A DNA stretch of 64,000 nucleotides from a virus. The first letter of the stretch is position 1. Each line of letters opens with the position of its first letter. Made by a program: the position numbers and the translations under genes. The notes under the pieces are model-generated. The model was not told the DNA's origin. It worked only from the letters and a program-made list of their open reading frames with translations, and searched no databases. Positions 10,276 to 13,533 of this stretch are shown piece by piece. Location: positions 32,001 to 96,000 of the IMG/VR virus record IMGVR_UViG_3300047382_000480; one strand, 5' to 3'.

Positions 10276-10304
10276 ATAATAAATCAATCATACATAAAAG
10301 TCAA
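10276..10304 (-). promoter_or_regulatory. Sigma70-type promoter of gp45
   Basis: TTGACT-17-TATTAT; shares AGTGCTTGACTTTTATG with the gp43 promoter. Confidence 0.7.
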
Positions 10305-10612
10305 GCACTTTCTTCAAAATACTCAATATTAATTTCAAATCCATCTTTAGCCTTGTCGGTGAAATCGATATCCATTGATTTCAACTCGTCAAACAGATTT
10401 TGATCTTCAGACCTTCCAATAACAGTTAGCGTTAATCCATCAACACTAAATTGATATTCTAATTTTACTTTACCGCTGTCAACATGACGACGAAAAATAC
10501 TCCTTGCGAGTTCGGCTTGCGGTCCACCCCAAGTATCAGCCCCAGAAAGAAAAATTTGTGAGAGATCTTTTCGTGTAACAGATATTTTCACACAGTAATT
10601 TGTTGAAGACAT
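10301..10612 (-). CDS. Hypothetical protein (last gene of the acyl cassette)
   Basis: 103 aa ORF overlapping the upstream gene; no recognised motif. Confidence 0.55.
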   Translation of the reverse strand: MSSTNYCVKISVTRKDLSQIFLSGADTWGGPQAELARSIFRRHVDSGKVKLEYQFSVDGLTLTVIGRSEDQNLFDELKSMDIDFTDKAKDGFEINIEYFEESA

Positions 10613-11181
10613 TGCTTTACCTCATTTTCATAATCGCTAAAATCGATATACATCGCAGTTTGTTCTGTAAATTTATAATTAACCTTTGTATCAAAGGTCT
10701 TAATTTTAGGAACAAAAGACAAATATTTATTTTTTCTGACATTCATATATGCAATTGTAGCTTTTGCTCTCCAAAGATTATGATCGTTTAAGAAGAACAC
10801 TGCAGCCCGATAATTATCTTTTATTGCACGGATAAATGTGTGCTGAATTAATTTTCTCATCAACTGGATTCTTTCTTTCATTCCGAGATCGGTTGAAATA
10901 TATAACCGAACTGGGAAAACTGCTATTGAGTCATCTTGCTCAAAAGGATAACACCCAACACCGCAAACATATTTACCATCTTTTTCATAAACAAAATACC
11001 CACCATTTTCACAATCATATATCTTCTGAATAAAGATTTGATTGAGAACAGTTTCTGGGCGATTTTTCCAATCTAACACCTGCACATTTTCTGCAGTTAG
11101 ATCATCGCTAAACTCAGCAATTTTACACATATCAAACAATTTCTTGTCTTTTTCACAACTGCTATCTATTCTTACGAACAT
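10588..11181 (-). CDS. Putative GNAT-fold acyltransferase
   Basis: GYFVYEKDGKYVCGVG hairpin, RLYI strand, helix, then AAVFFLNDHN, matching GNAT topology by eye. Confidence 0.5.
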   Translation of the reverse strand: MFVRIDSSCEKDKKLFDMCKIAEFSDDLTAENVQVLDWKNRPETVLNQIFIQKIYDCENGGYFVYEKDGKYVCGVGCYPFEQDDSIAVFPVRLYISTDLGMKERIQLMRKLIQHTFIRAIKDNYRAAVFFLNDHNLWRAKATIAYMNVRKNKYLSFVPKIKTFDTKVNYKFTEQTAMYIDFSDYENEVKQCLQQITV

Positions 11182-11935
11182 CCAAAAACCTTATGAAAAA
11201 CTGATATGGCGAATCAAAAAACCCAAACTGTGCCTTTCCTGGATTATCGTGATGATTCTTATGGTACAACTCACCAACATAAAATATACTTAACCATGGA
11301 ACATTAATCGGTTCTTTTTTTAGATGACCAAAGATGTTTAATGTAACTTGGAAGATGTATGCGACCGCAATAAACGAAGCCCAGAACCCTCCTAATCCAA
11401 CTGCAAACATAAATGCAGCAGAGAGTATACCAAACTCCCAATACCACCTTGCTTGTAGTAGATACAGTTTGTCTCTTATCATCCACCTTGGAACCATATT
11501 AACAGGTGGAACATTATTAAAGACCATAAAATTATCAAAGATACTATGAACATTTCCATGAGGATCTTTTTCTGTATCAGTATGCTTGTGGTGTTGCCTG
11601 TGTATTCCTGCCCATCCCATACAGGGAGTGAGTAAGAAAAATGTTATCAATACCACAGTCAAAACCTCAACAAATCTATTTGGTTGCCAAGACTTATGTG
11701 AGCAGTAACGATGTTGAAACCCAGAGACAAAATATCCCACAAGAAGATTACTTAGTACTGCCCAAACAAAAACTTCTAAGAGTGATAATTTTGTTATCCA
11801 AAATACTGATGCGACAAGACAAGCTATGTACACAGCAGTGTGAACATATCCTGTTTTATTTCCTATAAACTTAGTCAAAGGAGCATTCAAACTTGCTTTC
11901 AAAAAAGCAAGGATAGTTATAATTGTAAGCATCAT
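11162..11935 (-). CDS. Membrane fatty acid desaturase (delta-9-like)
   Basis: His boxes HRYCSH, HRQHH, HKNHH plus NIFGH and DPH; several hydrophobic segments. Confidence 0.92.
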   Translation of the reverse strand: MMLTIITILAFLKASLNAPLTKFIGNKTGYVHTAVYIACLVASVFWITKLSLLEVFVWAVLSNLLVGYFVSGFQHRYCSHKSWQPNRFVEVLTVVLITFFLLTPCMGWAGIHRQHHKHTDTEKDPHGNVHSIFDNFMVFNNVPPVNMVPRWMIRDKLYLLQARWYWEFGILSAAFMFAVGLGGFWASFIAVAYIFQVTLNIFGHLKKEPINVPWLSIFYVGELYHKNHHDNPGKAQFGFFDSPYQFFIRFLDVRKNR

Positions 11936-13092
11936 ACTCGTAAAACTATTGAAGAAGACCTTCCACCAAATGCAAACGAATTCTTCAATGCCAGTTTCCC
12001 ATTAACATTCTTTTTATATTTATAGACATATTCTAGATCGCAGTCTTGAATATTGAAATTTGCAGGTATAACAGAATCACGAAGGCACATCAAAGTATAA
12101 ATTGTTTCATTAATTCCACTAGAAGCAAGGGAATGACCAACCTTTGATTTAAAGCTGACAATAGGTTTGTTTGGAACTACCTTTTGAATTGCATCATATT
12201 CAAGGTCATCACCAATCGGTGTTGATGTTCCGTGCGCATTAATGAATGCGATATCGCCTTGGAGGTCTTTGGTAACATCTTTCATAGAAGCAATTGCGCC
12301 AGTCATATTTAGATCTGGAGATGTAGCACTACCTAATGCGCCATCTGTATGGTGCGCGATTGATTCAATGTACCCAAGTATATTAGCACCTCTCGCCAAA
12401 GCAGTAGACTCTTTTTCTAGCAACAGACAACCAGCACCCTCTCCCATGATGAACCCATCTCGGTTTTTATCAAAGGGGCAGGACTTTGTTCCCAGTGCAC
12501 CTAACTGAGAAAACAGATACATCTCATCTTCTACAGCAGGAGTATCTGTACCACCAACAACTACAAAGTCGTGTGTTTTAAGTAAGTGTGTCGCGTAGTC
12601 TAGAGAATATAGACCAGTTGCGCATGCGCCATCCATACTAACACAAGCACCACGAAAGTCAAATGCCTTTCCGATCAACCCAGCTGTAAAATCTTTTAAG
12701 TATTGAACGGAAGTTCTTGGGGATAGTCTTCTACCTTTATGCAATCTAGTAGAAAATGTTGTAGCCTGAGTTTCGGGTTTAGTCGCAAGGGAACTGAAAA
12801 CAACAGCGACATTAGTGCTGTCAATATCTTTAGTAGCTTCCTTGACTACGTGCAAGGCATTTTTAGATGCAACTGAAATTGAAGTATGTACTGGTTTTCG
12901 CACACCTTCAGGAATAGCATAATCAACTTCCATTGCCTTGAAACACTTTAAACCTTTGATAACATCAATATCTGTTTCAAACTCAATAGGCTCAATGTAT
13001 TCATCGCTCATCAGTCTAGCGTAACATTCTCCTGGAGAAGTCCCAAGAGTATCAACCATACCTAATCCTGTTATCACAATTTTATCGGTCAT
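11932..13092 (-). CDS. fabF: Beta-ketoacyl-ACP synthase (FabF/FabB-like)
   Basis: IVITGLG start, catalytic Cys (GACATG), PFD..RDGFIMGEGAG, His (NAHGTST), His (GHSL), NSFAFGG. Confidence 0.92.
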   Translation of the reverse strand: MTDKIVITGLGMVDTLGTSPGECYARLMSDEYIEPIEFETDIDVIKGLKCFKAMEVDYAIPEGVRKPVHTSISVASKNALHVVKEATKDIDSTNVAVVFSSLATKPETQATTFSTRLHKGRRLSPRTSVQYLKDFTAGLIGKAFDFRGACVSMDGACATGLYSLDYATHLLKTHDFVVVGGTDTPAVEDEMYLFSQLGALGTKSCPFDKNRDGFIMGEGAGCLLLEKESTALARGANILGYIESIAHHTDGALGSATSPDLNMTGAIASMKDVTKDLQGDIAFINAHGTSTPIGDDLEYDAIQKVVPNKPIVSFKSKVGHSLASSGINETIYTLMCLRDSVIPANFNIQDCDLEYVYKYKKNVNGKLALKNSFAFGGRSSSIVLRV

Positions 13093-13104
13093 AATAAAAC
13101 TCGT

Positions 13105-13533
13105 CTATAGATGTTCAAAAAACTCATACATATTTAGGAAGTCTCCGTCAAGCGAAGGAATATTTTCTATATCAATGTTTGGTCTGTTTTTAAATTCAGC
13201 CTCAACATCATCTTTTTTGTAAAACGATGCTATACTATTATGTGAATTGTAATCGTCAGCATTCACATAAAAAAGATAATCTGCAGTAGTGGCGTGGAAA
13301 TAACGAAGAACAGACATTTTTCCTTTCACGGGATCATCGTCGCACTTCCCCTTCGCTACCGCATATCCATTATCAAAAGAAATTTGGGTCGCCAGAGAAG
13401 AAGACTCAGTGTCTGTTATATTAATAACGACAATCCGCTCATGAGGAGAGGAGTTTGAGTTCACGGATTTCAAACACCGATCTAACTTCTCTGGCTTCCC
13501 ATTGGTCAAAACCGCAACCAAAACTTTAGACAT
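13105..13533 (-). CDS. Short GT-A (GT2-like) nucleotide-binding domain protein, possibly truncated
   Basis: VLVAVLT...LDRCLKSV...IVVIN...DYLFYVNADD; likely start MSKVLV at 13533; about 142 aa. Confidence 0.55.
   Translation of the reverse strand: MSKVLVAVLTNGKPEKLDRCLKSVNSNSSPHERIVVINITDTESSSLATQISFDNGYAVAKGKCDDDPVKGKMSVLRYFHATTADYLFYVNADDYNSHNSIASFYKKDDVEAEFKNRPNIDIENIPSLDGDFLNMYEFFEHL

Follow-up and report, generated by a model that had tools for sequence, protein, structure and literature searches.

A stretch of 64,000 nucleotides (nt) of viral DNA (positions 32,001 to 96,000 of IMG/VR record IMGVR_UViG_3300047382_000480; here called the window) carries a compact cassette of five genes that may act together on host lipids. 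The source is a 138,660-b virus record, 86% complete, of an uncultured marine T4-like myovirus. The cassette encodes a truncated glycosyltransferase (GT), a beta-ketoacyl synthase (KAS), a membrane desaturase (DES), a GNAT-fold protein and a small protein of 103 amino acids (aa), ORF103. We tentatively suggest, giving it a little less than an even chance, that this is a lipid-tailoring module running on host carriers, built of two recurrent sub-modules that would most likely work on the same host lipid pathway. With it, the phage could probably alter the envelope lipids of its host. We favor a coupled module because the KAS-DES, DES-GNAT and GT-GNAT links recur in different backgrounds.

Until now, the lipid genes of phages have been regarded as individual genes for membrane fluidity. 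Here, a KAS and a desaturase sit in a conserved block with a GNAT family that was previously unannotated, is seen in viral contigs only, and also partners desaturases and GT2-type glycosyltransferases across several further groups of uncultured marine phages. If the genes of this small cassette (~3.2 kb) act together, abundant ocean phages would rewrite host envelope lipids more specifically than by fluidity tuning. This would bear on phage attachment, superinfection exclusion and the phosphorus economy of infected cells. In Ruegeria, aminolipids have been shown to influence phage attachment (PMC9938194).

The five open reading frames (ORFs) of the cassette lie on the minus strand, packed or overlapping, and span 10301-13566. 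From upstream to downstream they are:

13105-13533, minus strand: truncated GT2-type glycosyltransferase, 142 aa from an ATG at 13533, or 153 aa from a TTG at 13566.
11932-13092, minus strand: FabF-like beta-ketoacyl synthase, 386 aa, with PF00109 and PF02801; belongs to a divergent clade on virus-sized contigs.
11162-11935, minus strand: membrane di-iron desaturase of the SCD/DesC (delta-9) type, 257 aa; PF00487 at 36.7 bits (cut-off 29.7).
10588-11181, minus strand: GNAT-fold protein by its structure model, 197 aa, of an unannotated family seen in viral contigs only.
10301-10612, minus strand: small alpha+beta protein, ORF103, 103 aa, fast-evolving; trails the GNAT gene.

A 12-nt gap separates GT from KAS. 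KAS then overlaps DES by 4 nt, DES overlaps the GNAT gene by 20 nt, and the GNAT gene overlaps ORF103 by 25 nt, an operon-like arrangement. The longest plus-strand ORF opposite the cassette has 88 aa.

Recurrence of the gene order in viral contigs

Scans of IMG/VR yielded 40 loci for KAS and 49 for GNAT, and for the desaturase we used the best 80 of 492 stretches (counts not dereplicated; loci are given L numbers). The order GT-KAS-DES-GNAT-small ORF was found in six further distinct contigs, one of which has an added kinase/nucleotidyltransferase gene. The KAS-DES-GNAT synteny for which a first reading of the window, made from the sequence alone, had proposed a search of viral databases is thus present. 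In the most distant of the six contigs, the identity of the cassette proteins is down to 35-42%. One of these relatives, L046, shares only 35 to 47% identity with the window in its cassette proteins, and 79 to 92% in cobS, gp45 and gp44.

The pairwise links are more widespread than the full order. Of the 49 GNAT loci, 19 have a desaturase in their flanks, in 14 cases directly beside the GNAT gene; 23 are flanked by a GT2 and 7 by a KAS. The desaturase scan added six loci with a GNAT-family match directly upstream of DES. KAS stands directly upstream of DES in 26 loci, or 14 after dereplication. The surroundings of the GNAT gene vary: cobS-DES-GNAT-gp45 (L048, L050), nrdA-DES-GNAT-nrdB (L067, L071-73, L076), TauD-GNAT-DES (L066), GT-Coq4-like-GNAT-DES (L089) and GT-GNAT (L075, L077-80). 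On a FastTree phylogeny of the desaturases (93 rows), GNAT adjacency needs eight changes and KAS adjacency three; these numbers are rough, since the tree has long branches. Therefore, the DES-GNAT association appears to have been gained or lost repeatedly.

Two other settings of the GNAT gene were seen. In 23 loci of another phage type (L051-L053, L057-L064, L067-L073, L076, L081, L083, L084, L088; around position 7000 in each), it lies between the genes for the large and small subunits of ribonucleotide reductase, nrdA and nrdB, with a desaturase directly upstream in some and ThyX and dCMP deaminase genes nearby. In nine loci (L055, L056, L074, L082, L085-L087, L089, L090), the order is GT2, a Coq4-like gene (PF05019, E 1e-12) and GNAT. 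In L055 and L074, the ones mapped in detail, a B12-binding radical S-adenosylmethionine (SAM) gene stands behind the GNAT gene. Separately, on a 112.9-kb viral contig (L137:31-8301), a KAS gene, six FA_desaturase paralogues and a gene for an acyl carrier protein (ACP; PF00550, 43 bits) stand side by side. This block looks like a larger viral lipid gene cluster.

The ketoacyl synthase

The KAS passes both ketoacyl-synthase Pfam models (PF00109 at 87.9 bits and PF02801 at 72.5 bits; cut-offs 20.8). Over its full length, it can be aligned to solved FabF enzymes, the best being 9s5h_B (E 2.4e-40). In the alignment to 9s5h, the catalytic set is kept: Cys157, His287, Lys315, His320, the gate residue Phe375 and a GDDLE motif. 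The Cys-His-His triad that had been reported as intact is therefore present as Cys157, His287 and His320, aligned to the corresponding 9s5h residues. These features suggest a FabF-type elongating enzyme that would condense malonyl-ACP with acyl-ACP. The protein scores below the fabF equivalog of NCBIfam (TIGR03150, 214.9 bits versus a cut-off of 493.75), and PHROGs has no family for it. The record holds one KAS and one desaturase only.

Relatives of this KAS fall into two sets in a search of 5.8 billion proteins. The first comprises about 60 clusters of 360 to 396 aa, 33 to 72% identical, on contigs of at most ~160 kb. Past a gap, the second set is ordinary cellular FabF of 412 aa at 32 to 34% identity. 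Matches in GenBank phage records number 28, all at 26.6 to 34.1% identity and mostly unannotated. In a FastTree phylogeny of 85 rows, all nine viral-contig sequences and 55 unnamed metagenome proteins form one group, with the sampled cellular FabF sequences outside. The stem of this group measures 0.87 changes per column, with an SH-like support of 100. This is a quick tree of hits to the one query, so it speaks for a separate clade and not for its origin.

The desaturase

The desaturase has the histidine boxes HRYCSH (starting at residue 75), HRQHH (112) and HKNHH (225). All three boxes named in the sequence-only reading are confirmed, and there is an additional NxxxH motif, NIFGH at 200, which we take to be an SCD1-like metal-ligand motif. 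Nine histidines are invariant across 13 viral homologues. By Kyte-Doolittle analysis, hydrophobic spans cover residues ~29-73, 87-112 and 168-202. The only solved relatives are structures of acyl-CoA desaturase 1 (4ymk, E 1.1e-4; 4zyo, E 3e-4). Regiospecificity is probably delta-9, judging from the SCD1-like motif stretch alone.

A tblastn search of 50,697 phage records at E<=1e-3 found no cyanophage relative of this desaturase. The single match was Pelagibacter phage Mosig, at 27.6% identity. In Mosig (L091; MT647606.1, 50732-69340), the desaturase-like gene is part of a large island of genes for sugar and lipid modification. Two Asp/Arg-hydroxylase genes, aminotransferases, radical SAM-type genes, a carbamoyltransferase and an N-acetyltransferase-domain gene are also found there. 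One of the Asp/Arg-hydroxylase genes adjoins the desaturase, and such a gene also adjoins the desaturase in L143. The Mosig N-acetyltransferase was considered as a relative of the cassette GNAT protein, and the hhalign probability of 12% does not show relatedness.

The GNAT-fold protein and ORF103

The 197-aa protein matches no Pfam, PHROG or NCBIfam family, and its GNAT fold is settled by structure modeling. An AlphaFold model built with eight homologues (pLDDT 82.6) has the canonical GNAT order of strands and helices. Foldseek returned 329 PDB matches at E<=1e-3; among the matches listed, the top ones are almost all GNAT acyltransferases. VIA-align gave 3gya_A as the best match (Z 13.4, root mean square deviation 3.4 over 142 residues) and 186 chains at Z>=8. 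A structure search of the ESM Atlas returned GNAT clusters only (TM 0.58-0.66), the nearest of which are labeled viral. The description of this protein as GNAT-looking is thus borne out by three structure comparisons.

The family comprises 49 representative clusters at E<=1e-3. Two of these, P0033 and P0037, are giant repeat adhesin-like proteins and thus spurious matches. No relative was found in 50,697 GenBank phage records (tblastn, E<=0.01), nor in species genomes in a scan with a close GNAT alignment, which reaches close relatives only. A search of PDB sequences with the family profile gave only a spurious proteasome match (E 0.005). Seven residues are invariant across 33 members: C19, N32, W38, G76, R92, N135 and Q174. 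Arg92 follows strand 4 and fits the first position of the coenzyme A (CoA) motif Q/R-x-x-G-x-G/A.

The gene that trails GNAT encodes ORF103, which matches nothing but itself in the 5.8-billion-protein search. Positional homologues of 106 to 113 aa, found by synteny only, stand behind the GNAT gene in L042-L047, L049 and L117 at 16 to 28% identity. The model (pLDDT 76.6) has a beta-alpha-beta-beta-alpha-beta topology. Its fold matches are weak and of a generic dimeric ferredoxin-like/ABM-like kind (Foldseek best E 5e-4, VIA best Z 7.2, Atlas feature scores <=0.77). We considered ORF103 as an ACP. It has no Pfam match, and so none to a PP-binding domain, and the modeled topology is not a helical bundle; it is not a carrier protein. 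A complex prediction for the GNAT protein with ORF103 (score 0.00, mark 0.32) says neither for nor against binding.

A decayed glycosyltransferase

The first gene of the cassette is of the GT-A/GT2 type, as had been proposed. However, what had been called a short domain is a truncated remnant. It matches PF00535 at E 0.009 and 16.4 bits, below the cut-off of 23.3, and six relatives have 266 to 300 aa. Residues 1-107 are 58% identical to the 268-aa GT of L001, which passes PF00535 at 40.4 bits. The nucleotide-binding half is kept, with a DxD-like ADD; the acceptor half is gone, and the protein ends ~40 residues past the ADD. A further, weak match (E 0.075) suggests that an internal part may have been deleted. 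The genome has another GT2 outside the cassette, which is unrelated to this one.

Gene loss is also visible in a relative. In L001 (7201-8001), a kinase/nucleotidyltransferase gene stands between GT and KAS, and the GT of L045 (4218-5114) has the final residues of that gene as its own end. This tail is a deletion scar, a sign of rapid gene loss in the island.

A late-promoter motif inside the KAS gene

One regulatory feature falls within the cassette:

12017-12024, minus strand: TATAAATA box, the T4-type late-promoter consensus, inside the 3' end of KAS and ~80 nt upstream of the desaturase start codon.

In total, 14 TATAAATA boxes occur in the window, every one of them on the minus strand, and this number was not attained in any of 100 shuffles. 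There is no enrichment of sigma-70-like promoter sites (16 observed versus 17.5 expected). A TATAAATA box lies 92 to 99 nt before the KAS stop codon in 9 of the 14 dereplicated KAS-DES junctions, and those KAS genes have no box elsewhere. Relatives with the box in KAS are L001-L004, L043, L045 and L095-L097. L004 retains the box in another frame, where it encodes a different peptide, which argues for conservation of the DNA motif itself. We suggest that it is probably an extra late promoter from which the desaturase and the genes that follow would be transcribed.

Borders and genomic setting

The island has gp45, gp44, gp62 and cobS in its flanks. Its immediate borders are:

13526-13807, minus strand: DUF3310 gene (PF11753, E 1.6e-10), the conserved upstream border.
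9583-10239, minus strand: gp45 sliding clamp (phrog_223, E 1.9e-62), the conserved downstream border.

The sequence-only reading had placed five tightly packed minus-strand genes between a cobS block and gp45. All five are present there, but the DUF3310 gene intervenes before cobS. This gene overlaps GT by 8 nt, and it stands directly upstream of GT or KAS across related T4-like loci. At the other end, a 61-nt gap separates ORF103 from gp45, which is 89 to 94% identical among related loci. A peroxiredoxin gene (8968-9573, minus strand; PF08534, E 2e-22) adjoins gp45 downstream and is found in the same place in related loci, at 52 to 87% identity. No Rfam family or tRNA was found within 9000-15000.

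The closest GenBank phages for gp45 (43% identity) and cobS (51%) are cyanomyophages, and blastn of the whole cassette against the 50,697 phage records gave no match. Elsewhere in the genome, outside the window, there is a CsgG curli-pore gene (G000:C1:127841-128482, E 2e-47). CsgG is treated as a marine pelagimyophage feature (PMC7029224), and in this respect the phage resembles the pelagimyophages.

Several seawater, marine and viral metagenome studies have runs with near-identical DNA. Contigs from two other marine metagenome runs contain the cassette, with its truncated GT, at 0 or 1 differences; in run X4 the GT shows none. Therefore, the cassette is not an artefact of one assembly. In the same two runs, the gp45 flank (9500-10222) differs at 13 to 17 places, compared with the 0 or 1 in the cassette (10216-13649). 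This contrast agrees with a mosaic island whose borders are conserved. Contig depth is very high at 10216-10286 and 13350-13503, marking borders that many related phages have in common. RNA libraries X18 and X20 have five short identical contigs on the stretch, which we do not count as evidence of expression, since such contigs are no proof of transcription; nor is a lack of RNA cover elsewhere on the stretch informative.

Host carriers

Neither an ACP (PF00550) nor a phosphopantetheinyl transferase (PPTase; PF01648) was found in the record (138,660 b, 86% complete). By this measure, the cassette is not a self-contained acyl biosynthetic gene cluster. Host carriers would therefore be needed, which fits the use of host ACP that had been proposed from the sequence. 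The same record contains no genes for a PlsC-type acyltransferase, a class I/II aminotransferase or a 2Fe-2S ferredoxin.

Proposed mechanism and alternatives

The scheme that follows proposes substrates, a coupling of steps and a kind of product on the strength of the gene models, catalytic residues, folds, synteny and recurrence described above. The viral FabF-type KAS would condense malonyl-ACP with host acyl-ACP, and the SCD/DesC-type desaturase would add a cis double bond, probably delta-9. Together, the two would shift the chain length and unsaturation of the host acyl pool. The GNAT protein, with the small alpha+beta protein that trails it, may take an acyl or acetyl group from CoA or ACP and attach it to an amine of an envelope lipid or its head group. 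A GT2 normally precedes this second sub-module; in the phage of the window, it is decayed. The host would supply the carriers (ACP, CoA), the reductase and dehydratase steps and the electron donors.

Several points weigh against such a coupled module. Its parts often occur apart: KAS-DES stands behind DUF3310 without GNAT in 14 of the 80 desaturase loci, and 53 of the 80 have no KAS, GNAT or GT within 5 kb of the desaturase. Likewise, 36 of the 40 KAS loci lack a desaturase match, including a large group of ~35%-identical KAS in another phage type, and so do 30 of the 49 GNAT loci; L047 and L049 have GT-GNAT-small ORF with neither KAS nor DES. Some of the loci in these counts are the same or near-identical contigs. 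Direct hand-over from KAS to the desaturase is not obvious, because KAS uses acyl-ACP, whereas SCD/DesC-type enzymes use acyl-CoA or lipid-bound chains. The GT is the decayed remnant of a complete GT2. In the GNAT family, the glycine positions of the CoA-binding motif are not conserved among the 33 members, and the sole sequence-level signal is a weak match of five of them to the ordinary acetyltransferase model PF00583 (best E 3e-4). The LuxI (PF00765) and OlsB/N-acyl amino acid synthase (NAS; PF13444) models match 0 of 33 at E<=1. At 86% completeness, the gene absences in the record are not proven. Finally, co-location may partly reflect a recombination hot spot, because the island sits in a known hypervariable region.

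The last point leads to the main alternative, which we regard as somewhat unlikely: two unrelated accessory sets share a recombination hot spot and make no common product. KAS and the desaturase would then be membrane-fluidity genes that give longer, unsaturated phospholipid chains, as in homeoviscous adaptation. GT-GNAT-small ORF would act elsewhere, for example in surface-sugar acetylation or glycosylation for serotype conversion. The separate occurrence of KAS-DES behind DUF3310, of GT-GNAT-small ORF in L047 and L049 and of the desaturase in most of its loci speaks for this explanation, and the weak PF00583 signal and the late-promoter box that separates KAS from DES agree with it. So do the sugar-activating-type kinase/nucleotidyltransferase gene between GT and KAS in L001, the ascription of hypervariable-island glycosyltransferases to O-chain modification (PMC7029224) and the stand-alone delta-9 lipid desaturases of cyanophages (PMC5776448). 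However, a single hot spot hardly explains the DES-GNAT adjacency, because it recurs in at least five different gene arrangements and genome backgrounds, often with overlapping ORFs, and needs eight changes on the desaturase tree. Much less probable is a role of the KAS as a take-over factor, an excess FabF-type enzyme that ties up malonyl-ACP or host fatty acid synthesis partners and slows host lipid synthesis, with the other genes unrelated; we give this very little credence. E. coli suffers toxic effects when FabF is overproduced. The clade of the KAS is long-branched and found on virus-sized contigs, and the gene is often alone, as the 36 loci show. Yet the catalytic and decarboxylation residues are all kept in the inspected clade members, and the tight pairing of KAS with the desaturase, joined by an ACP in L137, points to productive chemistry.

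The sequence-only reading had gone further than our coupled module. It saw an elongate-desaturate-transfer cluster for one unsaturated N-acyl product (such as a signal, an N-acyl amino acid or a lipidated protein), with the GNAT protein as a LuxI- or NAS-type acyl-ACP transferase. The gene order survives in the six other contigs, and the DES-GNAT adjacency in several unrelated phage backgrounds, but the cluster is modular. The KAS-DES pair in it is, moreover, already in print for freshwater pelagimyophages (PMC7029224). We consider a dedicated cluster of this kind very unlikely. The fold is shared with acyl-homoserine lactone synthases (BjaI 5w8a, Foldseek rank 49, E 3.7e-5), a likeness that does not discriminate. 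C19, N32 and W38 are invariant in the N-terminal half, where the acceptor sites of such enzymes lie; the poor conservation of the canonical CoA-motif glycines and the conserved gene order would also suit it. Against this, none of the 33 family members matches the LuxI or OlsB/NAS models at E<=1, so that by sequence the GNAT protein belongs to neither type, and in structure it comes closest to ordinary small acetyltransferases. ACP and PPTase genes were not found in the record, the ORF103 model lacks a carrier-protein fold, the cassette is modular and the GT is decayed. No observation points to a long-chain acyl donor or to one specific product. A bolder version of our own coupled module is quite unlikely as well. 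In it, the recurrent GT2/KAS/desaturase/GNAT network of uncultured marine phages would be a virus-specific pathway whose product is an unsaturated acyl lipid with an amide link (an aminolipid or an N-acylated amino-sugar glycolipid), with a logic like that of NodC/NodE/NodA or OlsB/OlsE. It would act in infected SAR11-type cells at a late stage and alter their envelope, perhaps as a block to superinfection or a way of saving phosphorus, and the GNAT family would be a new class of long-chain N-acyltransferase.

Comparison with known systems

Full-text searches on fabF in phages returned only three papers: PMC7029224, a prophage study (PMC8224337) and a viral-diversity study (PMC10653327). The nearest precedent is one sentence in the first of these, which reports fabF and stearoyl-CoA desaturase genes in freshwater pelagimyophages (Zaragoza-Solas et al. 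2020, PMC7029224). These are the same two kinds of genes, in T4-like phages that resemble SAR11 phages. The phage of the window is marine, and its pair is embedded in GT-GNAT-small ORF; the passages on the freshwater pair mention no GNAT or GT partner, promoter or synteny. The prophage study describes fabG-acpP-fabF in the same order as in E. coli (PMC8224337). In a limited literature search, neither the GNAT family nor its association with desaturases and GT2 turned up in any paper.

At the level of single enzymes, the KAS shares with bacterial KAS II (FabF; 9s5h, 4ls5, 1kas/2gfw) the two thiolase-fold domains, the Cys-His-His triad, the lysine, GDxxE and the gate phenylalanine. It is ~30 to 34% identical to these enzymes over its full length and has 386 aa compared with ~412. 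Unlike them, it belongs to a separate, long-stemmed clade and has no fab operon neighbors or ACP. The desaturase shares with SCD1 (4ymk, 4zyo) the stretches HRxxSH and HRxHHKxxDTxxDPH and the HxxHH box, although the similarity (E 1e-4) covers ~110 residues only and the protein has 257 aa compared with 318 to 339. The cyanophage viral fatty acid desaturases (vFADs) that have been tested are DesC-like delta-9 lipid desaturases encoded by stand-alone genes (PMC5776448). Like the desaturase of the window, they are described as phage membrane di-iron enzymes with three histidine boxes and a proposed role as membrane-remodeling auxiliary genes. They belong to the same broad class but to another lineage, and they stand alone, whereas the desaturase studied here is coupled to KAS and GNAT.

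The GNAT protein has the same fold and topology as small GNAT N-acetyltransferases (3gya, 2q7b, 1tiq and EctA 6sk1) over ~140 to 150 residues (Z 11.5-13.4), including the invariant arginine after strand 4 and the asparagine at helix 4. It differs from them in its low identity (5 to 15%), in the lack of a conserved Gly-x-Gly/Ala in the CoA motif, and in an extra conserved N-terminal cluster. It also has no Pfam match, and its family is seen in viral contigs only.

As multienzyme systems, two bacterial pathways offer analogies only. In OlsB/OlsE (review PMC11631085), an N-acyltransferase of the GNAT-like group is combined with a membrane di-iron enzyme of the hydroxylase/desaturase type. The phage cassette departs from the Ols pathway in that none of the 33 GNAT members matches PF13444 and no OlsA/PlsC-type gene was found in the record. 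The Asp/Arg-hydroxylase genes beside the desaturase in L143 and in Mosig fall under the same analogy. OlsC also belongs to the aminolipid pathway, and the Nod-factor system comprises NodC, NodE and NodA. Set against the latter, a phage GT2, a dedicated KAS and an N-acyltransferase would parallel that system.

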